A stretch of DNA of 64,000 bases from an uncultured Candidatus Kuenenia sp. (GCA_964453165.1 CAYVNX010000001.1:27284-91283), one strand, 5' to 3'; counted from the first letter of the stretch, positions 21,420 to 49,995 are shown. The notes: generated by a model not told the origin, from the letters alone. Made by a program: numbers and translations.

Positions 21420-23345
21420 TCACGATGGTTCGTTGCCCGCAGCGGTGGGGTGACTCTGGCGACTGGCCGCGATCCGCCGAAACTCGGCCTGCATCTGGGG
21501 GAAATCGTTGGCTATTCGGTGGAAGTCGGCGGCGTCGAGTGCGAGAAGGTCGCAGTGGCAGACGGCTCGGACCGTGGCAGAGCGGGGTTGGTCAAAGAGT
21601 ACTGCCATTTCGCCAAAAAACTCACCCTCCCCAATCCGGCCGACTCGCTCGCCGGCGCGGCCCAGCGCCTCGAGTTCGCCGCGGCAGACGAAATACATCT
21701 CACCGCCTCGGTCTCCCGCTCGGACGACCGTGTCACCCGGACCGAAAGCGAGCGGTCGAAACGCGAGGAGCAGGTTGTTGAGCATGACAGCCGGGGCAGT
21801 CGCCAGAAACTCGCTCCGGGCCAACACGTCGCGGGTCAGGTTCTCATGCCAGCGGCGACCGTCGCGCGCGAGCAGACTGTTGGCCGCCGCCGGTCCCCAG
21901 GTGCCGGCGGCATAGTTGGGGAAGTCGTCGGCGGGTGTGCCACGCCAGGCGTCGAGCATGGGTTGGACGATCTGCCAGGCCGTTTCCACGAAATCGGTGC
22001 GGGAGAACAGGGTTGGGTCGTTGTTGAGCGCCGCGTAGAGGAGCACCTCGTAGCCAGTCCCGCGGGCCGCCTCGAATGTCTCGGCGTAGTCGAACCGCAT
22101 GCCCGCGGGCTGGAGGCGAAACGCGGGGCCGGGTCGCTTGGCATGCATTCGGATCTCGACAGCCTGGTAGGGCTGAATGTGGAAGATCAAGAGATTGGGC
22201 TCGACCGCTGCGGAGCCCGAGGCCGGGGGCCGAAACTGCACGACGATTTCGGTGCCCCGCTTCCAGAGCGACTTTCCCGACCGCAGGTAGATCGGCACCC
22301 CGGCCCAGCGGGCATTGTCGATCTGCAGCCTGATCGCGGCGAAGGTCTCGGTATTCGACACCGGATCGACGTCGCGTTCCTGGCGATAGGCCACGGCCGG
22401 TGAACCGTCGGGCTTCGAGCCCGCGGCATATTGGCCGCGGACGCAGTCGCGGGCGACCGCCGTGGGATCGAGCAGCCGAACCGATTCCAGGAGCCGAGAC
22501 TTTCCGTCGCGAATCGCGGCCGGGTCCAGGGACGTCGGGGGCTCCATGCAGACGTAGGCCAGCATCTGGAGGAGGTGGTTTTGCACCATGTCGCAGACGA
22601 CCCCCGTTCGGTCGTAGTAGCCGCCCCGCGTCTCCACGCCAACCGTTTCGAGCGAGGAGAGCTGGACGTGGTCTATATGGCTGGCGTTCCAGAGCGGTGC
22701 GAACAGCGGGTTGGCCAGCCGAAAGGCTAGGATGTTCTGCACCGTCTCCTTGCCAAGGTAGTGATCGATGCGATAGATCTCGTCCTCCCGCCAGTGGGCC
22801 AGCAGGTCTCGATTGAGACCGATGGCCGAATGCAGATCCTTGCCGAACGGCTTTTCGACGATGATTCGTTTCAGGCCCGGCATCCGCGTGAAGCCTGCCG
22901 CGTCGAGCCGCCGATTCACTTCGGAGAAGAAGTCGGGCGAGATGGCCAGATAGATGAGCGTGTTGCCGGCCGCTCCGGTCTGCTGCCCAACCTCGAGCAC
23001 GAGCCTCATGAGCCGGTCGTAGGCGGCCGGATCGTCGAAGTTGCCCGGCAGGTAGTGGAGTCGCGATTCCAGCCACTGACAGCGGTCCTCGTCGAGGGCC
23101 TTCCGGGTCGTGAATCGGGCGATATCCTGCCGGTGGCGTGCTCGAAACTCGGCGGTGGTCTGCTCTGTCATCGCCATGCCAACGACGGCGAACTCGTCCG
23201 GCAGCAGCCCGTCGCAGGCGAGGTTGTAGAGAGCCGGCATCAGCAGCCGCTTCGTGAGATCGCCCGAGGCTCCGAGAATGACGATCAGCCCCGCCGCGGC
23301 CGTGGACGTTTGCCCGGCCTGGTTGCTGGGGGGTGCCATGGGCAT
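21420..23345 (-). CDS. zwf: Glucose-6-phosphate 1-dehydrogenase fused to a C-terminal cyclic-nucleotide-binding domain
   Basis: 641 aa. G6PD motifs ILGASGDLTKRLL (NADP site), IVEKPFG and YRIDHYLGKE (active-site region). The G6PD part ends near GTWGPAAANSLLARDGRRWHE, followed by about 134 extra residues with cNMP-binding signatures. Confidence 0.9.
   Translation of the reverse strand: MPMAPPSNQAGQTSTAAAGLIVILGASGDLTKRLLMPALYNLACDGLLPDEFAVVGMAMTEQTTAEFRARHRQDIARFTTRKALDEDRCQWLESRLHYLPGNFDDPAAYDRLMRLVLEVGQQTGAAGNTLIYLAISPDFFSEVNRRLDAAGFTRMPGLKRIIVEKPFGKDLHSAIGLNRDLLAHWREDEIYRIDHYLGKETVQNILAFRLANPLFAPLWNASHIDHVQLSSLETVGVETRGGYYDRTGVVCDMVQNHLLQMLAYVCMEPPTSLDPAAIRDGKSRLLESVRLLDPTAVARDCVRGQYAAGSKPDGSPAVAYRQERDVDPVSNTETFAAIRLQIDNARWAGVPIYLRSGKSLWKRGTEIVVQFRPPASGSAAVEPNLLIFHIQPYQAVEIRMHAKRPGPAFRLQPAGMRFDYAETFEAARGTGYEVLLYAALNNDPTLFSRTDFVETAWQIVQPMLDAWRGTPADDFPNYAAGTWGPAAANSLLARDGRRWHENLTRDVLARSEFLATAPAVMLNNLLLAFRPLAFGPGDTVVRAGDRGGEMYFVCRGELEALGRAGERVGRIGEGEFFGEMAVLFDQPRSATVRAVCHCDLLALDAADFHRIANDFPQMQAEFRRIAASRQSHPTAAGNEPS
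21423..21824 (-). other. cNMP-binding (CAP effector-type) domain forming the C-terminus of Zwf
   Basis: FRPLAFGPGDTVVRAGDRGGEMYFVCRGELEAL...RIGEGEFFGEMAVLFDQPRSATVRAVCHCDLLALDAADF carries the classic G.FFGE.AL....PRSATV phosphate-binding cassette. Confidence 0.75.
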
Positions 23346-23552
23346 GGACGGTTCCTGGGATGGAAAAGCCGCGGCGGCCCACGGCCAGGCTGGCGATATG
23401 GCGAATCAGCGTCGCTTTTATACCAGGATGGTGACAGCGACGATCCAGGCTCGGAGTCCTACACGATTGAGTCCGGGGGCGAGATCGGCACGCACACGAT
23501 GGCCCAGGCCACCAGGCAGTGCGGCGGTGCCACAAGCGTGACTCTCCAGGGG

Positions 23553-34925: not shown

Positions 34926-35681
34926 CTATCCAAGGCCCTCGAAGAGCGCCGAGCCGATCCGGACGATGGTCGCTCCTTCCAGGATGGCGGCTTCGAAGTC
35001 GCCACTCATTCCCATCGACAACTCAGCGAGGTGGGATGGCTCCGGCAAATTCGGGACCAGTCGGTCGCGGAGTTCCCGTAGCCGGGCGAAGTCCCTCCGG
35101 GCGTCGGAGTGGGGCGCATCCGGGTGGCCCGCCATGCCCATCAGCCCTCGCAGCCTGACCTGAGTGGATCGCGCCGCGGCCGCGACGAGCGCCGGCACAT
35201 CGGCCTCGGCGGCGCCCGAGCGGCTCGGGTCGCTCGTGAGGTTGACCTCGATGAGCAGGTCGCATGGCGCAAGCCCTTGCCGCCCACCCTCGATCTCGAT
35301 GGCCTCGAGCAGCCGCAGGCTGTCGAGCGTCTCCAGCATGGCCGTCAGCGGGAGCGTGCGGCGGACCTTGTTCCGCTGCAGATGTCCAATCAGGTGCCAA
35401 CTGGGCGGAGGAGTCCAGGCGGCAAGAGCGGCCGACTTCTCCCAGATCGCCTGCGGCCGGCTCTCGGCCAGCTCGCGGCAGCCGGCGGCCAGCACGGCGG
35501 CCGTCGTGGCCGCATCGACGTATTTGGTCACCGCCACAAGCACGACCTCGGCGGGATCCCGGCCGGCCTGGCGGCAGGCCGCTGCCATTCGGTCACGGAC
35601 GGCAGCAACGTTCGCGAGCACCGGCCCGCATACCCGCGGGTCGGCGGTCACTGGTCCGGATGAGTTGTCAGGACCAGTCAC
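34926..35681 (-). CDS. yggS: YggS-family pyridoxal-phosphate homeostasis protein (start uncertain: GTG 35681 overlapping the upstream stop, or GTG 35651)
   Basis: VLVAVTKY (PLP Lys), HLIGHLQRNK, LRGLMGMA, LSMGMSGDFEAAILEGATIVRIGSALF. The 489-aa track ORF is an artefactual N-terminal extension overlapping the upstream gene. Confidence 0.85.
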   Translation of the reverse strand: MTGPDNSSGPVTADPRVCGPVLANVAAVRDRMAAACRQAGRDPAEVVLVAVTKYVDAATTAAVLAAGCRELAESRPQAIWEKSAALAAWTPPPSWHLIGHLQRNKVRRTLPLTAMLETLDSLRLLEAIEIEGGRQGLAPCDLLIEVNLTSDPSRSGAAEADVPALVAAAARSTQVRLRGLMGMAGHPDAPHSDARRDFARLRELRDRLVPNLPEPSHLAELSMGMSGDFEAAILEGATIVRIGSALFEGLG

Positions 35682-37288
35682 TGGATCTCGAGGGTGCGTT
35701 TGACTTCGCCCTTCCGCTTGATGTGGCCGAGGAGGAACTCGCAGGCCACGTTGCAGCCGAGCAGCGTGCGGTTTCGCGGGGCGTCGAGCGAGCGATACAC
35801 CAGCCACTGCTCGAGGCCGGCCTGCACGCGGAAACCGGCCGCCTGATGGGGCCCGAGGTTCTGTCGGGTGTCGGCCACCGTCAACTGACGCCAGGTCAGC
35901 GGCCGACCGATCCGGGCTGGCTCGAGGTCGAGCCAGAGCGGGGCATACAGCCGGCGACCGGGCGAGTCCTGCGCGAGCCGGAGGTTCCCGGCCGTCGCGG
36001 TGAAACCCCCGCGTACCGGCACCCGCCATTCCTGAAGCGCGAGCGGACAGGCCATGAATCTCACGGCAGCGTCGCGGATAACGATCTCGCGGGTCTCGTT
36101 CGCCGCCACGGCCTCGAGGCCCGCTGCCAGCGGCAGGGAGGAGGCGTATTTCAGCCAGCCGGTGTTCGGGTCGGAATCGGCAGCGGTCAACGCCGGTGGA
36201 GCGGACGTGGTCACGGCGTCGGCCAGCAGCAGCACCCGGTCCCGGGGCAAGAGGACGAGACTCCGCTCGAACTGCCGGCCTCCGGGCAGCGCGGCGGTCA
36301 GTTCGAGATAGCAGGCCTTCGCACCCGGCTCCCAACAGGCCACGCTCCACGGGCCCTCGGGATCCAGTCGCTCGCCGTCGACCGAGAGACTCCACTCCCA
36401 GTCACCCTCGGCAAGCATCCGGTCTCCGGTCGCGATCTCGAGCCGTGGCACGGTCTGCCGGTAGTCACAGAGAACCCGAATGGCCCGCGCATCCCAGCCG
36501 GTGCGCAGGATGGCGACAGCTGCCTCAGGGTCGTTCAGATGGAGCCGGAGGCACCGGGCAGCCGGTTTGGACCCTCGCCCCGCAGCCCGGAGCATCTTGA
36601 CGGTGCGGGCTCGGCGGCCTTCCAGCGTGGCAACCGCCGCGAGCAGCGGGGCCGTGAAGGGAAGGGGCATCAGGCCTGCGCCCTCGATCTGGCGGCCGTG
36701 CCGGCCGAGCAGGCGAACGGACGCGGTCGCAGCCTCCCGCCACCGCCGTTCAGTCGGCCCGCCCCAGATCGCGGCTCCGGTCGCCTCGGCCAACTCGCGA
36801 CAGGTCGTCCAGCGAACGACCCGCCGCACCATGTCCCCACCGCTTGCGACGTTTACGACTCCGCCGGGCGAGACGAGCCGATCGATTTCGGCTGTGAGCG
36901 CGTCGGTAGCCGTGGCTTCAAGGCAGCGGCAGGCCTCGATGTCGGCGAACAGGCGGGCGAGGGTGAGCAAGAACCGGGCGGAGCTGGTGTCGCCCCGCGC
37001 GAGGAACTCCTGGGCAACGCGAGCTTCCTTCACGAGCCGTTCCAACAGGCCTCCCGCCGAGCCGCCGGCGCGACGGGCCCGGGCCATCCACCCCAGGGCC
37101 CAGGCCGCTCCCTCCGCGGCGAGCCAGCGATCCCCAGGACATCCGGATCCGACGTCGTCGAGGCAGTCGGAAATGGCGGCCTCCACGAACCGGGCCCGGT
37201 GGGGGTTGCCGGCGCCGTCCTTCACCTGGCCGGCCAGCCGCACGAGCCGGTCGCGACAGGCGGGCGTCTCAGTCCATTCGGCGATCAT
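35678..37288 (-). CDS. Hypothetical protein, possibly heparinase II/III-like at the C-terminus (start uncertain: ATG 37288 or 37495)
   Basis: Protein-like composition begins at MIAEWTETPACRDRLV. The 130 aa upstream in the track ORF are Arg/Pro-rich and would overlap the divergent gene start. The C-terminal segment ...GRQFERSLVLLPRDRVLLLADAV... weakly recalls heparinase II/III-type beta-sandwich domains (unverified). Confidence 0.5.
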   Translation of the reverse strand: MIAEWTETPACRDRLVRLAGQVKDGAGNPHRARFVEAAISDCLDDVGSGCPGDRWLAAEGAAWALGWMARARRAGGSAGGLLERLVKEARVAQEFLARGDTSSARFLLTLARLFADIEACRCLEATATDALTAEIDRLVSPGGVVNVASGGDMVRRVVRWTTCRELAEATGAAIWGGPTERRWREAATASVRLLGRHGRQIEGAGLMPLPFTAPLLAAVATLEGRRARTVKMLRAAGRGSKPAARCLRLHLNDPEAAVAILRTGWDARAIRVLCDYRQTVPRLEIATGDRMLAEGDWEWSLSVDGERLDPEGPWSVACWEPGAKACYLELTAALPGGRQFERSLVLLPRDRVLLLADAVTTSAPPALTAADSDPNTGWLKYASSLPLAAGLEAVAANETREIVIRDAAVRFMACPLALQEWRVPVRGGFTATAGNLRLAQDSPGRRLYAPLWLDLEPARIGRPLTWRQLTVADTRQNLGPHQAAGFRVQAGLEQWLVYRSLDAPRNRTLLGCNVACEFLLGHIKRKGEVKRTLEIQ

Positions 37289-37676
37289 GCTGATCCGACG
37301 GGCCGACTGGGTGCGGCGCACCCGCGGCGGTGTGGGGGAGTCCGCAGGAGCGTTCGCCCCATGAGGCTCCCGCAACGGCGGTGCTGCAGGTTGGGAGGCT
37401 GCGTCGCCCTCCTCAGTCCGGCGGACCGGAGGCCGCCGCTTCCCGTTGCGGCTGGCGTGGGACGAATCCTGGGGGCCGCGGGTCTCGGTAGGCATGCTTG
37501 GGTGGCGGGTGTTGTGGAAGGAAGTGGCCGAGCCCGTGGTGCGGGTCCGCCGGGCGGAGATGGCGCGGGAACCCCCGCGGCGGTATCGTACCGGAGGCGG
37601 GGTGCGGCATCCACGAACCGCGGGCCGCAGCCTGTCCCCGTCCAGCTGAGTTTGTCCCCCGGGAGGATCACGAGCC

Positions 37677-38411
37677 ATGCCCAGCCCCGCTGCTCGCCCC
37701 TGGTGGTTTCCGTTCGCCGGGAACGCCGTGACGGTTGCCGCCGTGGCGATCGCCCTGCCGCCGGTCTCGCGGGCGGAGCCCCCTGTCGCCGTCGACCCTG
37801 CGCCGCCGGTCGATGCCCACCCCGACCTCCGGCGGCTCTCGCCCGATCATGCCATCTGGATCGACCCCGTCCGCCGTCAGGTCGTCGTCGGGGGCGTGGT
37901 CGCGCTCGCGGAAGGGCCGATCGAGGTCTTCGCCTGTCCCGAGCGAACCAAGGAGCACGAGGCGGTGGTGGCGACCCACTGCCCCGCGCGGTTGCTGCAT
38001 GCCGGTCTCCTGGCGATCGGCCTGGAGCCGGGGAATCCTGTCTCGTTTCACCCTGAGTACGCAGCGGCCCGAGGACCAGCGGTCGCGATTCGAGTCCGCT
38101 GGCTCGACGCGGCGGGCAAGGCCCAGGAGTCCGCCGCCCAGGAATGGGTTCGCAACACGAAGACGGGCCGGCACCTCGAGGCCGAGTGGGTGTTTGCCGG
38201 AAGCGGCTTCTGGCGTGACCCTGCCGACGGCGCTGAGCACTACCAGGCCGACGGCGGCGACATGATCTGCGTCTCGAATTTTCCCACGGCGTTGCTCGAC
38301 CTTCCGCTTGAAAGCAGCGAGTCCAACGAGGCGTTGCTGTTCGAAGTCTTTGCCGGCCGGGTGCCGGCCCGCGGCACGGACGTGGAACTCGTGCTTTCTG
38401 CCGCCGAGTGA
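37677..38411 (+). CDS. Secreted hypothetical protein (YdjY-like domain suspected)
   Basis: N-terminal hydrophobic segment AVTVAAVAIALPPVSRA. I associate the motif EVFACPERTKEHEAVVATHCPARLLHAGLLAIGLEPG with YdjY-domain proteins common in PVC genomes; this is not verifiable here. Confidence 0.55.
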   Translation: MPSPAARPWWFPFAGNAVTVAAVAIALPPVSRAEPPVAVDPAPPVDAHPDLRRLSPDHAIWIDPVRRQVVVGGVVALAEGPIEVFACPERTKEHEAVVATHCPARLLHAGLLAIGLEPGNPVSFHPEYAAARGPAVAIRVRWLDAAGKAQESAAQEWVRNTKTGRHLEAEWVFAGSGFWRDPADGAEHYQADGGDMICVSNFPTALLDLPLESSESNEALLFEVFAGRVPARGTDVELVLSAAE

Positions 38412-39293: not shown

Positions 39294-39446
39294 GGCGAAA
39301 CTCGTGATGGGAGACGGATCGGGCGGAGGCAGTGCAGCAGCGGCGATTCGTGGACATCGGACGGCGGGCCGCCCCATGTCCACGCCAGCTGGTTTCGCGG
39401 TAGGATACCGGTTCGTTTCCAACCGGGCCATGAGGGGCAGTTCACC

Positions 39447-39719
39447 ATGGGACAGGCAATCGTCGATCCAGCCGAGCTTCGCCGTTTCGCGGGCAGCCTG
39501 CGGACCTTCAGCGAGGAGGTTCTCGCCCACATGCAGATGGTGCAGCGACAGCTGGCCGCGCTCGGCGCCACCTGGCGGGATCAGGAGCAGCAGAAGTTCG
39601 CCGAGGAGTTCGAGGCCCAGCTCACGACGTTCAAACGATTCGCCGAATCGACCGGCGAGTACGTGCCGTATCTGATTCGGAAGGCGGAGCGGGTCGAGGA
39701 ATACCTGCAGCAGCGGTAG
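39447..39719 (+). CDS. WXG100-like small helical-hairpin protein (W-x-D variant), P1 of the T7SS-like operon
   Basis: 90 aa; GAGGGG 9 nt upstream of the ATG. N-terminus AIVDPAELRRFAGSL parallels the canonical WXG100 I.V.PE.L...A. Central LGATWRDQEQQKFAEEFE lies between two predicted helices. High third-position GC and Lys/Glu/Gln/Phe-rich composition, unlike the antisense ORF. Confidence 0.6.
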   Translation: MGQAIVDPAELRRFAGSLRTFSEEVLAHMQMVQRQLAALGATWRDQEQQKFAEEFEAQLTTFKRFAESTGEYVPYLIRKAERVEEYLQQR

Positions 39720-39765
39720 GCGACACCGTCCCGGGAGGACGGGGGCGACCAGAGGAGACCGAGTC

Positions 39766-40374
39766 ATGGCCGACCAGGCCGATGTCAAATCGATCGACAC
39801 GCTGGCCTTCGTGCGCACGGCGTTTGCGTCGTTCGCCCATGAAACGGGCCAGGCCCTGGCGGAGATCGAGATTCAGGGACAGCGGGCCGTCGACTGGATC
39901 TGCGTCGATCAGGCCGCCTACTGGAAGACCGAGATCCGCAAGGCCAACGAGGTCGTCAACAAGGCGATCAAGGACCTGGAGCATTGCCGGACGTTCAAGA
40001 AGGTGGGCGATACCACCCCCTCGTGCATCGAGGAGAAGAAGGCCCTGGAGAAGGCCCGCCAGAAGCTCGCCCGGGCCGAGGCCAAGGCGGAGGCCGTGCG
40101 GCGGTGGACGCCGATCGTGCAGCAGCAGTTTCGCGAGACGGGTGTCCGGCTGGTGCGGTTCCGCGACGTGATCGACGTCGATTGCCCCCGGGCGATGGCC
40201 CAACTCGAGAAGATGCTGCGGGCGCTCGACGCCTACCGCCAGCTCTCGTCTCCCACGGGCGGCGCGGAGGGTGGCACTGGCTCGGCGGGGCCGAGCGTGA
40301 CCAGGCAATTGGAGGAGCCACCACCGGCTGCCGCCGGGCAGGCCGGGCCGGTTTCTGGAGGTGCGGCACCATGA
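39766..40374 (+). CDS. Helical protein of unknown function, P2 of the T7SS-like operon
   Basis: 202 aa. Helix-rich, charged (KKALEKARQKLARAEAKAEAVRRW), with a Gly/Pro/Ala-rich C-terminal tail. Its stop overlaps the P3 start (ATGA at 40371-40374). Confidence 0.6.
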   Translation: MADQADVKSIDTLAFVRTAFASFAHETGQALAEIEIQGQRAVDWICVDQAAYWKTEIRKANEVVNKAIKDLEHCRTFKKVGDTTPSCIEEKKALEKARQKLARAEAKAEAVRRWTPIVQQQFRETGVRLVRFRDVIDVDCPRAMAQLEKMLRALDAYRQLSSPTGGAEGGTGSAGPSVTRQLEEPPPAAAGQAGPVSGGAAP

Positions 40375-40607
40375 GAGTCTGTGACCTTTCCAGCGGCGCC
40401 TCGAAACTCGCCAACGCGCTCAAGCAGATGAATCTCAAGTGGGATGCCGCCACCGAGACCTGGAACGACGCGCGGGCAAAAGCCTTCCACAAAGAACATG
40501 TGGAGCCGCTTCTGCCGAGCGTGAAGGAGACGCTCGACGCCCTCGGCCGGCTCGCGGAGGTGCTCGACCGCGCCGCCCGCGACGTGAGTGACAGCGACGG
40601 GGCGTGA
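40371..40607 (+). CDS. Second small WXG100-like helical-hairpin protein (W-x-D variant), P3
   Basis: 78 aa: MRVCDLSSGASKLANALKQMNLKWDAATETWNDARAKAFHKEHVEPLL...LDALGRLAEVLDRAARDV. Central TWND..AKAF sits between two helices. ATG 40371 is translationally coupled to P2. Confidence 0.5.
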   Translation: MRVCDLSSGASKLANALKQMNLKWDAATETWNDARAKAFHKEHVEPLLPSVKETLDALGRLAEVLDRAARDVSDSDGA

Positions 40608-40662
40608 CCCCGGCGGCCCGATCCCTACCCGTTGCCCCCGCCCCATCCTCCGAGGTTTGAGA

Positions 40663-43600
40663 GTGAGTTCGAACGCCCCCGAGAGCGCCGCATCGCCCGC
40701 AGCCACAGCCGAGGCCCGCACCGCGTATCACCCCGACGTGCTGCGGCAGCAGATGGCGATTCTCCGTCGGGAGTCGGCGGCCAGGGCCAAGGCTGAGGCG
40801 GAGATCGCCGCGGCGTACGAAGAGGCTACGACGGCCGCGCAGGCCGCGGCGCAGCGGTCGCTCGCCGCCACCCGGGAGAAGCACGCCGCCGAGATCGAGG
40901 CCACTCGGCGGAAACACGATGACGTGAAGCGGCAGGCGGATGAGTTTCGGGCGGCAGAGCAGAAGAAGCTCGACGAGTTTCGCCAGGCGAAAACCAAGGC
41001 GATCAAGGGGGAGTGTGCCCAGCGGGTCGAAGACCTCAACGAGACCGAAACCTTCGAGCAGATCCGCTTCAAGGAGGTGGTGAAGTCGAAGACGCCAGAG
41101 CCGCAGCAGGCGGCAGCCGCGCTCGACCAGAAGCTCTCGGCCGGGCTTGCCCAACTCCGGGAGGCCGCCACCGCCGCGACCAAACTGCTCGCCTCGTGGG
41201 GCGTGAAGGGAGGCGAGTCCGCGGGAGCCGTTGCCGCGGCCGAGACAAAGGGGCCAGTCGAAGCGATCCTGGCGGCTCGCGATGCGGTGTTGGAGATCAC
41301 CAAGGCGATCAAGGGCGACGATGCGGCCAAGGCGGCGCTCTCGGGGGGTATTCGCGGGCTCTTGAGCGGCAACAAGGCCGAGAAGCGGACGGAACTCGCC
41401 GCCCGGCTCACTGAACTCGAATGCCACCTAGCGCGGGCCAACAGCCTCGAGCCGGCGGCGCGGCAATGGATCGCGGCGAAGAAGGAGGAGCACGCCCGCC
41501 GGCTCGAAACACAATTTCGCGAGGAGGATGCCGCCCGCAAGGCGGCCCTCAAGCAGGCGCTCGCCGCCGCTGCGGCGGCCCGCGACACGGCACTGGCCGA
41601 CCTGGAGGCGAAGGTGGCCGATGGCTCGGCCAAGCTCGCCGCCAAAGTGGGCGACCATCTGCGGGGAGCCGAGGAGAAGTACCCCGCCCGCGTGGCCGCC
41701 CTCGAGGCCGCGCTCGCGGCCGATGTGGATCGGCTCGAGCGGGAACGGGCCGAGCAACTCGCCGCCGCAGAGCGGACGCGGGACGATGCCCTGGCCGCGA
41801 TGACCGCCGCCTGGCGTCAGGCTCGGGAGTCGACGGCCGCGGTCTACGCCGACGCGACGCGGCTCGACGCCGAGGCGTTCAGGCCCTGGGCGGTGCTCGC
41901 CGATCCGACGGTGCCGCTGCCGGTCGACGCTCCACCGGGGCTCCGGTTCGGCGATCTGGCCCTGTCGCTCGAGCGGGTGCCCGGGGGCGTGTCGAACGTC
42001 GAAGAGCTCAACTCCTTCGGGCCGATCACCTGGTCGCAGCCGGCCACGGTCGCCTGGCCGGTCGCAGCCTCGCTCGTGATCAAGACCTCGGCCGGAGAGA
42101 AGGAGACGGCCTCGGCCCTCATCCAGGCCCTGATGCTCAGGATCGCCACCGGCATTCCCGCTGGCCAAAGCCGATTCACGATCATCGACCCGCTCGGCCT
42201 GGGCAAGCAATTTGCGGGCTTCATGCACCTCGCCGACCACGACGAGCTGCTCGTCACCAGTCGGATCTGGACGGAGCCGCAACTGATCGAGCAGAAACTC
42301 GCCGACATCACCGAACAGATGGAGGTGGTGATCCAGAAGTATCTGCGGAACGAATACGAGTCGATCGGTGCCTACAACGCCGATGCCGAAGTGCCGGAGC
42401 CGTACCGATTCGTGGCTGTGGCCAACTTCCCGGCCAACTTCAACGAGACGAGCGCCCGGCGGCTGGCCAGCATCGCCGCCTCGGGGCCGCGGTGCGGGGT
42501 GTATGTGATCGTGTCGATCGACCCCTCGCTTCAGATGCCTTCGGGCTTCAGCCGGGCCGAACTCGAGCAGCACGCGACCGTACTCGAGCTGAAGAACGGC
42601 ACCTTCACCTGGGCCGACCCGGAGTTTTCCAAGTGGCCGCTCGCGGTGGAACAGGCTCCACCCGACGATCTCTTCACCACGATCATCCAGCGGGTGGGGT
42701 CGGCGGCCAAGGCAGCCAAGCGGGTCGTGGTGCCGTTCGACCGCGTGGCCCCGAAGGAGGAGGACTGGTGGCACGGCAGCACGGCCAACGAGGTCATCGC
42801 CCCGCTCGGTCCAGCCGGCGCCAAGAAGCTTCAGTATCTCAAGCTCGGCAAGGGCACCAGCCAGCATCTGCTGATCGCCGGCAAGACGGGCTCCGGTAAA
42901 TCGACCCTGATGCACGCGATGATCACGAGTCTGGCGCTGCAGTACAGCCCCAACGAGATCCAGTTTTATCTGATCGATTTCAAGAAGGGAGTCGAGTTCA
43001 AGCTCTACGACCACTACGCGCTGCCGCATGCGCGGGTGATCGCGATCGAGAGCGAACGAGAGTTCGGCCTGTCGGTGATGGAGCAACTCGATCGCGAACT
43101 CAAGCGGCGCGGTGATCTGTTTCGCGAACTGTCGGTGCAGAACGTGGCCGGCTTCCGCCAGACGGGCCATCCCGATCCGATGCCCCGGATCCTCCTCCTG
43201 ATCGACGAGTTTCAGGAGATCTTCGTCGAGGACGACAAGATCGCCCAGGATGCCTCGCTGATCCTCGACCGACTGGTCCGGCAGGGCCGAGCCTTCGGCA
43301 TCCACGTGCTCCTCGGGTCGCAGACCCTGGGCGGCTCCTACAGCCTGCCACGGGCCACGATGGGGCAGATGGCGGTACGGATCGCACTGCAGTGCAACGA
43401 GGCTGACTCGAGTCTGATTCTCAGCGACGACAACACGGCGGCCCGACTGCTGACCCGGCCGGGCGAGGCGATCTACAACGACGCCAACGGCATGGTGGAG
43501 GGCAATAATCCCTTTCAGGTCGTGTTTCTCACCGACGAGCAGCGGGAGCAGTATCTCGGCGACCTGCGAAAGCTGGCCGACCGGCGGACCGACATTCCCC

Positions 43601-44682
43601 ACCTCCATCGGATCGTATTCGATGGCAACCAGGCAGCTGATCCGGCCCTCAATCCGTTGCTGACGGAGATGCTTGCTTCGGGCACGGTGGGTGGTCGCGA
43701 TCTGGTCGCGCCCCTGGCCTGGCTGGGTGATGCGATCGCGATCAAGGATCCGACGGCGGCGATCTTCCGCCGCCAGGCGGGGGCCAATTTGCTGATCGTG
43801 GGGCAGCGGGAGGACCTCGGCACGAGCCTGTTGGCCCTGTCGATCGTGAGCCTCGCGGCCGAGCACGATCCCCATCCTGGCGGCGGACTCGGCAAGGCCG
43901 CCCGGTTCGTGGTGCTCGAGCCGGCGATCGCCGAGGAGAAGCCCGACCTGATGCTCGCGAATCTGGCCAGCCACCTGCCCCATGAGATGGAGCTCGCCGG
44001 GCGGCTGGGAGTGACCGAGGCGATGGCAGCCCTGGCCGCGGAGGTGAAGCGGCGGCTCGATGAGCAGGTGCTCGACGGCGAGTCGGTCTACCTCGTGATC
44101 CGTGACCTGGGCCGGTTCCGCGAGCTGCGGAAGTCGGAAGGGGATTTCGGCTTCGGCGGTTTCGGCGGCGAAGAGAAGAAGGCCTCGCCGGCCGACAACC
44201 TCCTGAGCGTGCTCCGCGACGGGCCGACGGTGGGCATCCATGTGATCTGCTGGTGCGACTCGCTCATGAACCTCCAGCGGACATTCGACCGCAACGCGAT
44301 CAAGGAGTTCGAACTCCGGGTGCTCTTCCAGATGAGCAGCAACGACTCCAGCACGCTGATCGACAACCCGGCCGCCGGCAAACTCGGCCCGCAGCGCGGG
44401 CTCTTCGTGCACGAGGAGACGGGCACGGTGGAGAAGTTCCGCCCCTACTCGTTTCCCTCGCCCGAGTGGCTCACCACGATCGCGGCCCAGATGCGCGCGC
44501 GGCCCCAGGGCACTCCGGTCGAGCGTCCCCGTCCTGCGGCTGCCGCGTCCGCTCCGCCGACCGACGAGAAGAAGAGCAGCTTCTCGTTCGGCGGGGGCGG
44601 CGACTTCAATTTCACGAAACTCCTCGACGACGGCCCCGACGAGCCGCCCGCTGACGATGGCGCACGCGGATTTCTTGGTTGA
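40663..44682 (+). CDS. FtsK/SpoIIIE-family multi-P-loop ATPase (EccC/EssC-like) with coiled-coil N-terminus and no TM helix, P4
   Basis: GTG 40663 is preceded by GAGG 8 nt upstream (alternatives GTG 40588 or an internal ATG). 40663-41880 is Ala/Glu/Lys/Arg-rich coiled coil. Canonical Walker A GKTGSGKST (42880-42906) and Walker B ILLLIDEFQE (43189-43218). It is flanked by degenerate P-loop-like modules: LVIKTSAGEKETAS / RFVAVANFP / GVYVIVS at approx 42060-42540, and LLIVGQREDLGTS / VYLVIRDLGRF / GIHVICWCDS at approx 43780-44400. No hydrophobic stretch long enough for a TM helix. Confidence 0.85.
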   Translation: MSSNAPESAASPAATAEARTAYHPDVLRQQMAILRRESAARAKAEAEIAAAYEEATTAAQAAAQRSLAATREKHAAEIEATRRKHDDVKRQADEFRAAEQKKLDEFRQAKTKAIKGECAQRVEDLNETETFEQIRFKEVVKSKTPEPQQAAAALDQKLSAGLAQLREAATAATKLLASWGVKGGESAGAVAAAETKGPVEAILAARDAVLEITKAIKGDDAAKAALSGGIRGLLSGNKAEKRTELAARLTELECHLARANSLEPAARQWIAAKKEEHARRLETQFREEDAARKAALKQALAAAAAARDTALADLEAKVADGSAKLAAKVGDHLRGAEEKYPARVAALEAALAADVDRLERERAEQLAAAERTRDDALAAMTAAWRQARESTAAVYADATRLDAEAFRPWAVLADPTVPLPVDAPPGLRFGDLALSLERVPGGVSNVEELNSFGPITWSQPATVAWPVAASLVIKTSAGEKETASALIQALMLRIATGIPAGQSRFTIIDPLGLGKQFAGFMHLADHDELLVTSRIWTEPQLIEQKLADITEQMEVVIQKYLRNEYESIGAYNADAEVPEPYRFVAVANFPANFNETSARRLASIAASGPRCGVYVIVSIDPSLQMPSGFSRAELEQHATVLELKNGTFTWADPEFSKWPLAVEQAPPDDLFTTIIQRVGSAAKAAKRVVVPFDRVAPKEEDWWHGSTANEVIAPLGPAGAKKLQYLKLGKGTSQHLLIAGKTGSGKSTLMHAMITSLALQYSPNEIQFYLIDFKKGVEFKLYDHYALPHARVIAIESEREFGLSVMEQLDRELKRRGDLFRELSVQNVAGFRQTGHPDPMPRILLLIDEFQEIFVEDDKIAQDASLILDRLVRQGRAFGIHVLLGSQTLGGSYSLPRATMGQMAVRIALQCNEADSSLILSDDNTAARLLTRPGEAIYNDANGMVEGNNPFQVVFLTDEQREQYLGDLRKLADRRTDIPHLHRIVFDGNQAADPALNPLLTEMLASGTVGGRDLVAPLAWLGDAIAIKDPTAAIFRRQAGANLLIVGQREDLGTSLLALSIVSLAAEHDPHPGGGLGKAARFVVLEPAIAEEKPDLMLANLASHLPHEMELAGRLGVTEAMAALAAEVKRRLDEQVLDGESVYLVIRDLGRFRELRKSEGDFGFGGFGGEEKKASPADNLLSVLRDGPTVGIHVICWCDSLMNLQRTFDRNAIKEFELRVLFQMSSNDSSTLIDNPAAGKLGPQRGLFVHEETGTVEKFRPYSFPSPEWLTTIAAQMRARPQGTPVERPRPAAAASAPPTDEKKSSFSFGGGGDFNFTKLLDDGPDEPPADDGARGFLG

Positions 44683-44711: not shown

Positions 44712-44815
44712 GGTGCCACCGGACTCGCGTCCGGGGCTTGTATTCGCGGTGACTGTCGCGGCCATACCAGCCCCCGACGCAAGTCGGGGGGCTCCGCGTG
44801 GTGGCGGATCCCGCT
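44712..44815 (-). repeat. REP-like double-hairpin element, copy 2 (minus orientation)
   Basis: The reverse complement aligns with 29533-29630. Hairpins on the plus strand at 44719-44734 (ccggac-tcgc-gtccgg) and 44769-44793 (agcccccgac-gcaa-gtcggggg(g)ct, one bulged G). Read on the minus strand, the element starts approx 75 nt after the htrA stop. Confidence 0.7.
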
Positions 44816-44889: not shown

Positions 44890-46008
44890 TCAGCGGGGGC
44901 GGCGGCCGATCTCGACGGTGAGCATCAGCGGCTTGCCTTCGCGGATGACTTCGATCGGCAGTTCGGCGCCGACCTCGGCCCGGGTGAGCATGAGCACGAG
45001 TTCGGCCGGCGACGAGATCGGCTCGTCGTCGAATCGCACGATCACGTCGCGGGGCCTGATCCCGGCGAGGTCGCCGGGAGCACCCGGCTCGGTCGCCATC
45101 ACGAGCACGCCCCGTGAGCCATCCACCGTGCCCCGGAGCGCCAGGCCGAGGTAGCCCCGCTCCACGTGGCCGAGCCGGAGGATGGCCTCCGCCACTTCCC
45201 GGGCGGTGTTGCTCGGAATGGCAAACCCGATCCCGCGGGCGTCACCGCCGGCGATCGCCGTGGTGATCCCGATGATCCGTCCGTTGACATCGATCAGCGG
45301 TCCCCCTGAGTTGCCCGGGTTGATCGCGGCGTCGGTCTGGAGGAACTCCTGGAAGGGATCGTTCACGACGCCGCGACGGCCCACACCGCTCAGGATGCCG
45401 TAGGTCAGCGTCCGATCCAGGCCGAAGGGGTTTCCGATCGCCCAGACCATCTCGCCAACTTCGACGGTATCGCTGTCGCCCCAGGCCGCTGCCGGAAGGC
45501 CCTCGGCGTCGATCTCCAGCACGGCCAGGTCGGTGCCGGCGTCGGCCCCGACGAGCCGGGCCGGAAACCGGCGGCCATCGGCCAGGGCGACGTTGATCCG
45601 ATCGGCCCGAGAGACGACGTGATAGTTCGTCAGAATCACGCCGTTGGATTCGATGATCACTCCCGAGCCGATCGACTCGTCATTGACACCGCCCGGAGGC
45701 AGGCCGTGCAGGGCCGCGATCTCGTCGGCGAAACTCCGAAGCCGGCGGTCGGCCGTGACGTTGACCACAGCCGGGCCGACCAGCCGGGCCAGCGTGGTGA
45801 AGAGCTTTGCCACCGGCGCCAGCCGCGCGCCGGCCGCGGCGTCGGCAATCGCGGCCAACTCGGCCCGCGTGCGGGCATACTGGATCCGCCCGATGAAGGA
45901 GGGCCAGGCGATCAGGCCGACGAGCACGACGAAGCCGAGAAAGAGCAAGGCTGTCCGCCAGCGTGCGGTGAAGGCCGATGCGGTCTGGTCGAAGTTCGCG
46001 TCGCTCAT
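44890..46008 (-). CDS. htrA: HtrA/DegP-family serine protease with one PDZ domain
   Basis: N-terminal TM/signal ALLFLGFVVLVGLIAW. Catalytic triad contexts TNYHVV, TDLAVLEI, GNSGGPLIDVNGRIIGI. C-terminal PDZ-like region. Confidence 0.9.
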   Translation of the reverse strand: MSDANFDQTASAFTARWRTALLFLGFVVLVGLIAWPSFIGRIQYARTRAELAAIADAAAGARLAPVAKLFTTLARLVGPAVVNVTADRRLRSFADEIAALHGLPPGGVNDESIGSGVIIESNGVILTNYHVVSRADRINVALADGRRFPARLVGADAGTDLAVLEIDAEGLPAAAWGDSDTVEVGEMVWAIGNPFGLDRTLTYGILSGVGRRGVVNDPFQEFLQTDAAINPGNSGGPLIDVNGRIIGITTAIAGGDARGIGFAIPSNTAREVAEAILRLGHVERGYLGLALRGTVDGSRGVLVMATEPGAPGDLAGIRPRDVIVRFDDEPISSPAELVLMLTRAEVGAELPIEVIREGKPLMLTVEIGRRPR

Positions 46009-47219: not shown

Positions 47220-47330
47220 GGATTTCGCCACCGAGGGCTCACCGGAGACCCCGGCGACGCCCCATCTATAGCCTCCCTGGTCGGCCCTGCACAGCCGCAG
47301 CCCTGGCGGGCGGCGGCCTCTCCGGCGACA

Positions 47331-48515
47331 ATGGGGACGATGAAACTCGCACTGCTCGGAACGGACGATCGGATCGATCAGGTGGCTGCGGCCGCCCTGC
47401 GGGCCGGCCACGAGGTGGTCGCTGCCAGCGACCTGCCCGGAGGGAGCCGATGGCGGTCGCTGGTCCCCTGGGAGGATCTGCTCGACGCCGCTGTCTGCGA
47501 CGCCGTCTTGGTCGGCCGTGAGGGCTGGACCGAGGCCCGGGCCGAGGCGGTGCGGGCGCTCGTCCAGGCAGGCCGACCGCTGCTGGTGTCACACCCAGCG
47601 GAGCTGTCGATGCTCTGGGCTTGGGAGCTCGAAATGATCCGGCAAGACGCGGGCGGACTGCTTGTGCCGCTCTTGCCCGAGCGACTCCATCCCTTCGTGC
47701 AGCGGCTCAGAACCACGCTCGAGGCGGCGCTCGCCGGCGCCGGCCCGCTGGGGCAGGTCGAGTCGCTCGTGTTCGAGCGGCGACTCGCCGAGCGGCACCG
47801 CGATCGGGTGCTCGCATCGCTGGCCCGCGATGCCGATCTCGTGCGGGTGATCGTCGGCGAGCCAGCCCGGATCGCCGCGCTCGGGGTCGCAGCCGACGCC
47901 GAGCCATCTGCCTGGAACTCGCTGACCGTGGGGCTGACAGGGCCGACGAGTGTGCCGGTTCGCTGGCAGGTCGCCGGAGGCAACGCGGGACAGCTCGCGC
48001 TCGCCCTCCATTGCGAGCGGGGGCGAATCGAACTCGTGATTCCCGATGACTGGTCAAAACCCTGGCAGTGGACGGAATCGGACCAGCCCGGTGAACAGTG
48101 CTGGTTTGACCAGGCAGCCGCGATGCTGCCGCTCGTGTCGGGGCTGACGGAGATCAGCGCCGCGGATTCCATGACCCCGGCCCGCTGGTCCGATGCCGCG
48201 CGGGCGATCGAGGTTGCCGAGGCGGTACCACGGAGTCTCGCCAAGGGGCGGGCCATCGACCTGCACCAGGAGGAATTCAGCGAGTTGGGGACCTTCCGAG
48301 GCACGATGGCCTCGGCGGGCTGCGGACTGATCTTGCTGGCGCTCGGCCTGCTGGTGGTGGCCACCCTTGTGGGCGGCATCGCCCATGAGTTTGGCTGGGA
48401 CCAGGGGGGCCGGATTGCCGGCGTCTGGCCGGTCGTGGTGCTGGTCGCGTTGGGGGGCTTCCTGCTGCTGCAGTTGCTGCCGCTCCTGGTGACGACCGGG
48501 CGTCGGCATGAATGA
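47331..48515 (+). CDS. Hypothetical membrane-anchored protein (weak Gfo/Idh/MocA-like N-terminus, two C-terminal TM helices)
   Basis: MGTMKLALLGTDDRIDQVAAAALRAGHEVVAASD... C-terminal GCGLILLALGLLVVATLVGGI and VWPVVVLVALGGFLLLQLLPLLV. The upstream part of the 803-aa track ORF is antisense to cinA. Confidence 0.55.
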   Translation: MGTMKLALLGTDDRIDQVAAAALRAGHEVVAASDLPGGSRWRSLVPWEDLLDAAVCDAVLVGREGWTEARAEAVRALVQAGRPLLVSHPAELSMLWAWELEMIRQDAGGLLVPLLPERLHPFVQRLRTTLEAALAGAGPLGQVESLVFERRLAERHRDRVLASLARDADLVRVIVGEPARIAALGVAADAEPSAWNSLTVGLTGPTSVPVRWQVAGGNAGQLALALHCERGRIELVIPDDWSKPWQWTESDQPGEQCWFDQAAAMLPLVSGLTEISAADSMTPARWSDAARAIEVAEAVPRSLAKGRAIDLHQEEFSELGTFRGTMASAGCGLILLALGLLVVATLVGGIAHEFGWDQGGRIAGVWPVVVLVALGGFLLLQLLPLLVTTGRRHE

Positions 48516-48681
48516 TTTTGCCGCAGCCCGCACGGGCGGATTTCCCGGGTGTTTTTCTGGGAAACTCTGCCGGGGGACCTCCCCCGTGGTGGATGCTTTC
48601 CGATCAACCGCCGATCCACAACCGCATGGGGACGGGTGAGGCTGCCGCCGGGCGGCTGCCCCCGGCCTGGCCGGGGAGCGG

Positions 48682-49995
48682 GTGCCAATGCGGGACGTGC
48701 GAAGCCTGATGGCCGTCTTGGTCTGTGCCGTCGCGCTCCCCGTGGGTGGAGCCGCCTCGGAGGCCCGCCGCTCGGCGATCGTGATCGCGATCGAGAGCCA
48801 GCGGGATTCGGTCGTCAACATCCACGGCCAGAAACTCGTTCCGTCGGGCGACGACGGCGCGGGTGAGCTTCGCCGGGTCAACGGCATGGGCACCGGGGTG
48901 GTGATCGACCCCCGGGGCTACGTCGTGACGAACTTCCACGTGGTGGACGGGGTCAAGCGGATCGAAGTCACCCTGGCCAATGGTCGAACGGTCGCCGCCT
49001 CGCTCGTATCCCACGACCCGCGGACCGATCTGGCCGTCATTAAGATCGATTCGGACCAGTCGCTCCCCGTCGCCCGGATCGGCACGTCGAGCGACCTGAT
49101 GATCGGTGAGACCGTGCTGGCGCTCGGCAACGCCTACGGCTACGAGCACACGGTCACCCGGGGCATCATTTCGGCCCTCCATCGCAATGTGGAGGTCAGC
49201 CGCACGCAGCGGTACGACGACCTGATCCAGACCGACGCCAGCATCAACCCGGGCAATTCGGGTGGCCCGCTTCTCAATGTCGATGGTGAAGTGATCGGGA
49301 TCAACGTGGCGGTGCGGGCGGGCGCGCAGGGCATCGGTTTCGCGATCCCGATCGACAAGGTGCTCGATGTCGTGTCGCGGCTGCTCTCCGTGGAGAGGGT
49401 CTCCCACACCTGGCACGGGCTGGTCGTGCGCGGAGACCGTGACGGAGGGGCCGTCGTGGAAGGCGTCCACCGCCAAAGCCCGGCCGAGGGCGTCGGCATG
49501 CGAGCTGGCGACCTGATCACCCAGGTCGGTGACATGCCGGTTGGCTGCCAACTCGACCTGGAGCGGGCGCTGTTGGGCCACAAGCCGGGTGAGCGGGTGC
49601 CGGTGACTGTGGTGAGGGCCGGGGCTCAGGAGCGGATCGAGTTGCCACTGGTTGCCGTCCGCAAGGATTCGGCAAGCCTGGATGATCGGTGCTGGCGGGA
49701 GTTCGGCGTGCGGCTCGAGCCGGTGCAGGCTGCGGCCGTCCAGAAGCTCCAATCGCGGTATCGCGGCGGCCTGCTCGTGCAGGATGTTCGCGACGATGGG
49801 CCGGCGGCCGAACAGGGCATCCGCAAGGGTGACATCCTCGTCGGCCTGCATGTCTGGGAGACCATCGCCCCCGACAACATCGCCTACATCCTCGAGAAGG
49901 CTGAGCAGGAGCACCTCAATCCCATCAAGTTTTATGTGCTCAGGGGTCGGGAGACCCTGTTTGGCCACCTCGTCTCCGACACGATCCGCCGGTAG
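48682..49995 (+). CDS. Second HtrA/DegP-family serine protease with PDZ domains
   Basis: Signal-like LMAVLVCAVALPVGGAAS. TNFHVV, TDLAVIKI, GNSGGPLLNVDGEVIGI. Two PDZ-like segments. Confidence 0.85.
   Translation: MPMRDVRSLMAVLVCAVALPVGGAASEARRSAIVIAIESQRDSVVNIHGQKLVPSGDDGAGELRRVNGMGTGVVIDPRGYVVTNFHVVDGVKRIEVTLANGRTVAASLVSHDPRTDLAVIKIDSDQSLPVARIGTSSDLMIGETVLALGNAYGYEHTVTRGIISALHRNVEVSRTQRYDDLIQTDASINPGNSGGPLLNVDGEVIGINVAVRAGAQGIGFAIPIDKVLDVVSRLLSVERVSHTWHGLVVRGDRDGGAVVEGVHRQSPAEGVGMRAGDLITQVGDMPVGCQLDLERALLGHKPGERVPVTVVRAGAQERIELPLVAVRKDSASLDDRCWREFGVRLEPVQAAAVQKLQSRYRGGLLVQDVRDDGPAAEQGIRKGDILVGLHVWETIAPDNIAYILEKAEQEHLNPIKFYVLRGRETLFGHLVSDTIRR

Follow-up and report, generated by a model that had tools for sequence, protein, structure and literature searches.

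A chromosomal four-gene cassette of Planctomycetota as a probable member of the WXG100/EssC-like modules related to type VII secretion

Gene modules that couple WXG100-type proteins and a coiled-coil protein to an EssC-like ATPase have surfaced several times in the literature, in comparative-genomic remarks without experiments. Footnote 6 to Table 1 of one survey terms such modules 'mobile versions of T7SS' (type VII secretion systems; Zhang et al., 2012; PMC3482391), and a second study regards the combination of a WxG protein and an FtsK protein, HP0062 and HP0066 of Helicobacter pylori, as a minimal T7SS set (Uchiyama et al., 2016; PMC4978471). HP0062 is an 86-aa (amino acid) helical hairpin with a WRD motif, which dimerizes as an antiparallel four-helix bundle (PMC3397514). 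In a more recent work, the extended Type III-A CoCoNuT operons are described as encoding an EssC homologue with only its central ATPase domain active and with an N-terminal coiled coil in place of the FHA domains and transmembrane (TM) helices, the module also including two WXG100 proteins and a coiled-coil protein (Bell et al., 2024; PMC11090510). The same work credits Anantharaman et al., 2012 with the view that the operon is a mobile, stand-alone secretion system. Here we analyze a cassette of four genes (P1 to P4) at positions 39447-44682 of a 64,000-nucleotide stretch of DNA, hereafter the window, deposited as uncultured Candidatus Kuenenia sp. (GCA_964453165.1, CAYVNX010000001.1:27284-91283), and compare it with these systems.

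The versions in the literature are often mobile and carry a coiled-coil nuclease in the position of P2 (PMC3482391, PMC11090510, PMC4978471), and planctomycetes are explicitly among the host lineages given for the module (PMC3482391, PMC11090510). Reviews of T7SS still confine type VII secretion to Actinomycetota and Bacillota (PMC11217815). A preliminary description of the window, made from its sequence, had recognized a T7SS-like module in a PVC-type diderm and had thought it possibly undescribed. Its first point is borne out: WXG100-type genes stand beside a multi-domain EccC/EssC-like ATPase, the host background is Planctomycetota and the window holds a lipid A acyltransferase gene. The novelty of the system as such has to be given up, given that the module was already present in Zhang et al., 2012, Uchiyama et al., 2016 and Bell et al., 2024. 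We regard membership of the locus in this described WXG100/coiled-coil/EssC-like module as very likely. To the explanation that we favor as a whole, namely a chromosomal, stand-alone module of this kind operating by the mechanism proposed below, we assign a probability of about 0.55.

The four genes lie on the plus strand as open reading frames of 90 (P1, 39447-39719), 202 (P2, 39766-40374), 78 (P3, 40371-40607) and 1,339 aa (P4, 40663-44682). They are separated by 46, -4 and 55 nt, the start of P3 overlapping the stop of P2 in an ATGA; the co-directional layout, gaps and coordinates were correct as first reported. The genome has ~69% GC, and a test of GC by codon position speaks for all four being real genes. 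P4 likely starts at the GTG at 40663, and not at an upstream GTG at 40588, because its homologues begin at the same place with MST or MSS.

The two small proteins had been likened to WXG100 proteins, and profile searches uphold this. P1 scores 31.7 bits against the Pfam WXG100 family, above its gathering score of 27.3, and P3 falls just under that cut-off with 24.4 bits; at E <= 0.01 the family is matched by all 25 relatives of P1 and by 24 of 25 relatives of P3. The turn motif is W-x-D in both, in place of W-x-G: W43-R-D45 of P1 (39573-39581, +) and W31-N-D33 of P3 (40461-40469, +) are each invariant in their families. Among solved structures, P1 comes closest to H. pylori HP0062 (E 3e-7 over the full length, with a WRD motif in both), and the PDB sequence search also recovered EsxA and EsxB chains; P3 had no match among PDB sequences. 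P1 is 75-100% identical among Pirellulales loci, which exceeds the conservation of the ATPase as a whole, and retains 54% identity to its orthologue in Gemmataceae (Urbifossiella) and 44% to that in Phycisphaerae (Phycisphaera). Its C-terminal tail, YVPYLIRKAERVEEYLQQR (39660-39716, +), is almost invariant. P3 has 27% identity to the Urbifossiella and 25% to the Phycisphaera orthologue (E 2e-7 and 9e-11, respectively). P1 is a WXG100-type protein, and P3 is probably one too.

P2 belongs to no Pfam or NCBIfam family, and no toxin or nuclease domain was found in it. Its AlphaFold2 model (predicted local distance difference test score, pLDDT, 74) is a single long antiparallel helical hairpin, with helices at residues 4-77 and 88-159 joined by a loop (FKKVGDTTPSC, 39994-40026, +) and followed by a Pro/Ala/Gly-rich tail (residues 160-202) that is predicted to be disordered. 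A Foldseek search of the PDB with this model returned generic coiled coils (SH3BP5, chemoreceptors, BAR domains), none at E <= 1e-3, and is therefore uninformative beyond the description 'long helical hairpin'. Of its 630 homologues, all those with a functional name are called hypothetical. Orthologues are recognizable in Urbifossiella (31% identity, E 3e-12) and Phycisphaera (30%, E 3e-16).

P4 contains three tandem FtsK-like P-loop domains, here dA, dB and dC, of which only the central one is canonical. dB (residues ~701-995; 42763..43647, +) is matched by Pfam FtsK_SpoIIIE (PF01580) over residues 711-888 with E 4e-33 and has the Walker A motif GKTGSGKST (42880-42906) and the Walker B motif ILLLIDEFQE (43189-43218), both where the preliminary description had placed them; the other peptides it quoted are likewise present. 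That description had also suspected two degenerate P-loop modules, and both are real. dA (residues ~424-700; 41932..42762, +) carries a Walker A remnant, KTSAGEKET (42082-42108), and a Walker B remnant, FVAVANFP (42409-42432). dC (residues ~996-1290; 43648..44532, +) aligns to dB by hhalign over 200 colinear columns with 29% identity and has GQREDLGTS (43801-43827) and YLVIRDLGRF (44089-44118) at the Walker A and B positions. The Walker A lysine is lost in both. Canonical motifs are confined to dB in the window protein as well as in 50 representatives from Planctomycetota and three homologues on plasmids: the dA and dC motifs are degenerate in all relatives, and those of dB are invariant in the planctomycetal representatives and plasmid homologues. 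The region preceding dA (residues 1-423; 40663..41931, +) is rich in Ala, Glu, Arg and Lys, with 27% Ala; it has no Pfam domain above cut-off and no FHA domain, and its composition leads us to presume a coiled coil. The C-terminal tail (44533..44682, +) is predicted to be disordered (pLDDT < 50) and includes a motif, FNFTKLLDD (44605-44631, +), that is kept in the Pirellulales family and absent from more distant representatives.

The affinities of P4 lie with the secretion ATPases. Its best NCBIfam matches are EccCa, EccCb and EssC, at ~100-110 bits and far under the respective cut-offs of 347-778, and in a PDB profile search EccC D1 and D2, EccC5 and YukB rank above FtsK. The AlphaFold2 model of residues 401-1339 is poor, probably because the alignment is shallow in diversity, with a mean pLDDT of 59; dA (70-88) and dC (60-86) fare better. 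We compared it by E-values and colinearity, not by TM-scores. The top Foldseek match is the D1-D3 region of Thermomonospora curvata EccC (4nh0; E 7e-25, ~1,000 columns), a colinear match that includes dA. EssC/EccC D2-D3 structures come next, and FtsK motors reach only ~1e-8. In single-sequence PDB searches dA gave a marginal match to EssC D2 (E 0.33) and dC only noise. Domain architecture, the Foldseek result and the PDB profile and NCBIfam rankings together identify P4 as an EccC/EssC-like triple-domain ATPase with a central FtsK_SpoIIIE domain, and as neither a chromosome-segregation FtsK nor a conjugative TraB-type translocase; dA-dB-dC may correspond to DUF-D1-D2 or to D1-D2-D3 of EccC. 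PADLOC returned generic FtsK/HerA-type ATPase matches (SspH, mad8) to the central domain and no system-level match.

We then asked how widely the cassette is kept. P4 has hundreds of close relatives, all in metagenome-assembled genomes (MAGs) of Planctomycetota, the nearest being MAG contigs at 94% identity; a look-up of the exact P4 sequence of the window gave no record. Several MAG contigs (L002, L005, L020, L029 and others), 60-94% identical to this Pirellulales-type locus, are labelled 'Candidatus Kuenenia stuttgartiensis', a label that looks wrong. A scan of GTDB with one genome per species found a P4 relative in 480 genomes. When all 1.84 billion cluster representatives were scanned with HMMER, 3,223 matched at E <= 1e-30; among the best 150 of these, most are 1,280-1,600 aa long (three are shorter), identity to P4 is 48-56% (79% in one case) and nearly all span the three domains unbroken. 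Named members come from Pirellulales, a Phycisphaera MAG and a cultured Gemmataceae strain, Urbifossiella limnaea.

Synteny was judged on 80 fetched loci, more than 60 of which hold enough upstream DNA. In every such Pirellulales locus the order P1-P2-P3-P4 recurs, so the arrangement is far beyond chance. In Pirellulales the flanks are syntenic too, with DnaG, RpoD, GreA, YggS, a 550-670-aa protein, a YdjY-like protein and a chlorite-dismutase-family protein on the 5' side and HtrA and CinA on the 3' side, and in the close Pirellulales family insertions fall solely outside the P1-P4 block. Urbifossiella limnaea, the Phycisphaera MAG and two distant contigs have the same four-gene order amid unrelated flanks: a WXG100 gene of 89-90 aa, then genes of 152-226 aa and 72-80 aa, then the ATPase. 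The conservation of the neighborhood across Planctomycetota is thus upheld, and retention of the order amid unrelated neighborhoods marks the cassette as a conserved functional unit, phylum-wide and with no fifth gene. On these genomic comparisons it is a self-contained, vertically inherited, core-genome unit in Planctomycetota.

Some distant versions have features of their own. In one distant contig (L090, 2375-5005) a small four-helix-bundle gene of the 23S_rRNA_IVP/bAvd family lies between P3 and the ATPase gene, and a divergent FHA-domain gene stands 5' of the cassette. In Urbifossiella limnaea (CP036273.1; L084, 5958-14722) the ATPase has 1,573 aa, with an N-terminal Ser/Thr kinase domain replacing the coiled-coil/TM region, and a second kinase gene of 965 aa lies immediately 5' of the WXG100 gene.

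A tblastn search with the ATPase region of P4 against plasmids revealed multi-domain homologues in Caballeronia, Helicobacter, Rhodococcus and Deinococcus (E 1e-83 to 3e-41). The Helicobacter plasmid encodes, in order, a 90-aa WXG100 protein, a 340-aa coiled-coil HNH protein, a SUKH/SMI1 immunity protein, a 77-aa protein and an 823-aa ATPase, and the Caballeronia plasmid a WXG100 protein, proteins of 436, 113 and 76 aa and a 927-aa ATPase. With 823-927 aa the plasmid ATPases are, by length, too short for the ~420-residue N-terminal region. The P1 profile recovers the plasmid WXG100 proteins (Caballeronia E 5e-17; Helicobacter, 90 aa, 5e-10; Rhodococcus, 87 aa, 5e-7), whose turn motifs are of the same type (TWQD, TWGD and, in Rhodococcus, QWKD). 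P2 and P3 showed no significant homology to their positional counterparts on the plasmids (the 76-77-aa proteins in the case of P3), and when the P2 profile was aligned by hhalign to P1, to P3 and to the middle proteins of the plasmids, no match reached significance either; their equivalence to the plasmid proteins is therefore positional only. On the Caballeronia plasmid pSBC2-5 (L086, 2681-13503) the module lies between VWA genes, followed by genes for CARF, a PP2C phosphatase, a Ser/Thr kinase and an AAA protein, a setting that matches the TerY-P-associated defence context of the literature.

The relation of P4 to the membrane proved to differ between lineages. In a Kyte-Doolittle test with 19-residue windows and a threshold of 1.6, no stretch of P1-P4 of the window reaches the threshold; the maximum in P4 is 1.43, so the window ATPase has no TM helix and is not membrane-anchored. 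The earlier statement that the ATPase lacks TM helices thus holds for the lineage of the window and fails for 145 of 156 related sequences (~93%; 150 representatives plus six cluster members), which have one or two, mostly two, hydrophobic TM-like segments ~500 residues N-terminal of the P-loop. A hydrophobic hairpin is also found in ~90 of 120 close homologues. Comparison of the window protein with three relatives (P0038, P0053 and P0089) resolved the hairpin as an insert of ~55 residues with two strongly hydrophobic helices, located at window residues 232-233 (~41356-41361). Among the sequences without it are truncated entries and the Gemmataceae proteins fused to a kinase. In a rough neighbour-joining tree of the ATPase region, midpoint-rooted and built without an outgroup, the TM-less proteins form no fewer than three distinct groups, each nested within the TM-bearing proteins. 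This suggests that the hairpin was lost repeatedly and cleanly from an otherwise highly conserved protein, including in the lineage of the window. The common planctomycetal form would, by hydropathy, begin with a cytoplasmic domain and continue through a TM hairpin and a stalk to the three ATPase domains, which is the topology of EccC/EssC.

In T7SS, WXG100-type proteins form pre-secretion complexes, and EccC recognizes a signal on EsxB. By analogy with these systems, we propose that the cassette serves ATP-driven handling, probably export, of a helical-bundle substrate; the chances that it exports protein we put at about even. P1 and P3 would pair as WXG100-type hairpins and, on the model of T7SS pre-secretion complexes, probably bundle with the long hairpin of P2. 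The C-terminal tail of P1, being invariant in sequence, would dock on a pseudo-ATPase domain of a P4 hexamer, in the manner of EsxB recognition by EccC, and ATP hydrolysis in dB would drive translocation of the helical bundle through the hexamer. In relatives with the TM hairpin the bundle would cross the cytoplasmic membrane into the periplasm. In the TM-less lineage P4 would either need its presumed N-terminal coiled coil and a partner to reach the membrane or act in the cytoplasm.

Several observations weigh against this explanation. No inner- or outer-membrane conduit is encoded nearby. The Pfam families of EccB/D/E, MycP, EsaA, EssA, EssB and EsaB/YukD are absent from the window genes scanned, as the preliminary description had said of the known membrane parts, and from the precomputed Pfam lists of seven related contigs, distant relatives included. 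The window ATPase has no TM helix and the hairpin was lost in at least three groups; this repeated loss, together with the shortness of the plasmid ATPases, indicates that membrane insertion of the ATPase is dispensable. Bell et al. (PMC11090510) say of the version without TM domains that it probably works in some other way. The conservation of P1 (75-100%), above that of the ATPase, is unusual for a secreted effector. The structural model of P4 is weak (mean pLDDT 59), P2 and P3 have no homology to their plasmid counterparts at the level of sequence comparison, and export by any member of the module is so far a proposal.

The foremost alternative is a non-secretory cytoplasmic machine in which the ring of the ATPase would act on P2 together with its WXG100-type partners, whether by remodelling, unfolding or assembly, and nothing crosses the membrane; it would be a domesticated descendant of a defence or conflict module, possibly tied to Ser/Thr phosphorylation signalling. 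Neither the window P4 nor its closest relatives have a TM helix, which agrees with this alternative, as do the repeated loss of the hairpin, the short plasmid ATPases of 823-927 aa, the want of a conserved membrane partner or conduit nearby and the very strong conservation of P1. It also draws on the kinase fusion and second kinase gene in Gemmataceae, the FHA gene beside the L090 cassette and, as related in PMC11090510 and PMC4978471 and seen on the Caballeronia plasmid, the occurrence of the module elsewhere within defence islands, alongside genes for VWA, PP2C, kinase and CARF proteins. We nevertheless hold it to be rather unlikely. A hydrophobic hairpin at a fixed position in ~93% of planctomycetal orthologues suggests that they work at the membrane; wherever WXG100 proteins have been studied, they are substrates or co-substrates of T7SS (PMC11217815); and in fold and domain order P4 comes nearest to EccC and EssC, which are secretion ATPases.

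A DNA translocase for chromosome segregation or cell division, that is, an FtsK paralogue of the FtsZ-less planctomycetes with the small proteins as its regulators, would account for a phylum-wide, highly conserved core-genome gene with an FtsK_SpoIIIE domain at dB, whose homologues are annotated as 'cell division protein FtsK' or 'DNA segregation ATPase' in databases. It is nonetheless very improbable: the NCBIfam FtsK equivalog (NF007615) gives P4 31 bits against a cut-off of 1,566, Pfam FtsK_alpha and FtsK_gamma do not match it, FtsK motors match it far worse than EccC/EssC, its three tandem domains, two of them degenerate, resemble EccC/EssC and not FtsK, and its obligate partners are WXG100-type.

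That the locus is a recently acquired 'mobile T7SS' element for delivery of polymorphic toxins, an idea put forward for this clade of ATPases in other phyla and one that the footnote wording of Zhang et al., 2012 (PMC3482391) and the homologous plasmid modules with an HNH toxin and a SUKH immunity protein would favor, can scarcely be right, as P2 has no toxin domain and no immunity gene is present, the window consists of housekeeping genes (DnaG, RpoD, GreA, HemQ-like, HtrA, CinA, MurB and IspG) with a uniform GC content and no integrase, transposase or relaxase family among the genes scanned, local synteny holds in more than 60 genomes and the cassette extends across classes of the phylum.

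The surroundings of the cassette complete the picture of the locus. Its presumed promoter region (39294..39446) lies between P1 and the divergent chlorite-dismutase-family (HemQ-like) gene and is deduced from the gene layout only, because a scan for the sigma-70 consensus upstream of P1 found no match. On the 3' side the consensus scan picked out a weak terminator-like hairpin (44719..44744, +) 37 nt past the P4 stop; four such sites in the region against 2.7 expected make this weak evidence. Farther 3' two HtrA/DegP-type proteases with trypsin and PDZ domains (44890-46008, -, and 48640-49995, +) flank the CinA gene. HtrA, which adjoins the cassette in most Pirellulales loci, was considered as a MycP-like partner and rejected because it is not near the cassette in Gemmataceae, Phycisphaerae and other distant loci. 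Two syntenic genes without a Pfam family, at 35678-37678 (-; 666 aa) and 47301-48515 (+; ~400 aa, the product ending in hydrophobic helices), accompany the cassette in Pirellulales and not in Gemmataceae or Phycisphaerae.

Two genes farther away deserve mention. An open reading frame of giant size (3-18347, +; more than 6,115 aa) runs past the left end of the window; its product is rich in Ala, Gly, Val and Thr, has no Pfam domain at E <= 1e-4, carries two dockerin-like Asp-rich repeats (DGRVDIQDL, DDGRVNVFDL) at the C-terminus and is probably a giant cell-surface protein. The gene at 21420-23405 (-) encodes an unusual fusion of glucose-6-phosphate dehydrogenase to a C-terminal cyclic-nucleotide-binding domain.

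Relative to the literature, what appears to be new is the phylum-wide, vertical, core-genome conservation of a fixed four-gene cassette, its effector-less P2, the W-x-D motif common to both small proteins, and the TM hairpin of most planctomycetal orthologues with its repeated loss. In Planctomycetota the module is not a sporadic, mobile element: it is toxin-free, is kept across classes at ~50% ATPase identity and in most cases has its ATPase anchored in the membrane. Planctomycetes, among them several genetically tractable ones, are suited to asking what a 'minimal' WXG100/EssC-like system does and how it would work without the known membrane partners in a cell with an outer membrane, and the natural TM-plus and TM-minus variants offer a ready comparison. 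More speculatively, and we would not expect it to be borne out in full, the cassette could be a housekeeping, phylum-defining machine and not a toxin exporter. Whether it derives from the mobile T7SS-like modules or is ancestral to them, its task would be to export or assemble P2 with its WXG100 partners in the service of the envelope or the cell cycle of these FtsZ-less diderms, with anchoring of the ATPase optional and Ser/Thr kinase regulation in Gemmataceae. If true, a T7SS-type system would for the first time be tied to a core role in the physiology of a Gram-negative phylum.

When set against the named systems, P4 shares with FtsK/SpoIIIE the P-loop motor fold of dB (PF01580); FtsK combines a single active motor with a gamma domain and, at its N-terminus, four or five TM helices, and P4 shows none of these. 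Both T7SSa (ESX, with EccB/C/D/E and MycP) and T7SSb-T7SSj (with EssC/TsxC, EsxA/TsxA and accessory proteins; Garrett et al., 2024; PMC11217815) encode WXG100 proteins beside a multi-domain FtsK/SpoIIIE ATPase, the best matches of P4 in fold and sequence are EccC, EssC and YukB, and its TM-bearing relatives share with these an N-terminal domain, two TM helices, a stalk and the ATPase domains. The placing of the small helical proteins P1 and P3 on either side of the longer hairpin protein P2 recalls the LXG-Lap and EatA-TapA targeting complexes of T7SS. Unlike T7SS, the scanned genes include no accessory membrane parts, there is no FHA domain and the turn motif is W-x-D and not W-x-G; the active domain is central and not the first, the flanking domains having no Walker A lysine; the host is a diderm with lipopolysaccharide and the window ATPase is not membrane-anchored; and P4 scores far under all NCBIfam EccC/EssC cut-offs.

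H. pylori HP0062 (PDB 3FX7, 2GTS) resembles P1 in its W-R-D turn motif, its helical hairpin and its clustering with an FtsK/SpoIIIE gene and an HNH nuclease (PMC4978471). HP0062/HP0066 belong to another phylum, and the Helicobacter plasmid homologue departs from the cassette in its 823-aa ATPase without the long N-terminus and in having a toxin and immunity pair at the place of P2.

From the module of Zhang et al. and Bell et al. the planctomycetal cassette differs in being chromosomal, part of the core genome and phylum-wide, the described ones being mobile or in defence islands; in having a P2 without a nuclease or toxin domain, no immunity or DNA-mimic gene and no TerY-P triad; and in the TM hairpin carried by most planctomycetal orthologues, though not by the window P4, a hairpin that the cited passages do not mention, Bell et al. 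stating that their ATPases are without TM domains. Cassette and module share three FtsK/HerA domains with the middle one active; no FHA domain and, in the window P4, no TM helix; and two WXG100-type genes, clear for P1 and weak for P3, with a coiled-coil protein between them. The N-terminus of P4, to judge by composition, may correspond to the N-terminal coiled coil of the module. The gene order is that of the Caballeronia and Helicobacter plasmids, and both P1 and P4 have demonstrable homologues in the versions borne on plasmids and in defence islands.

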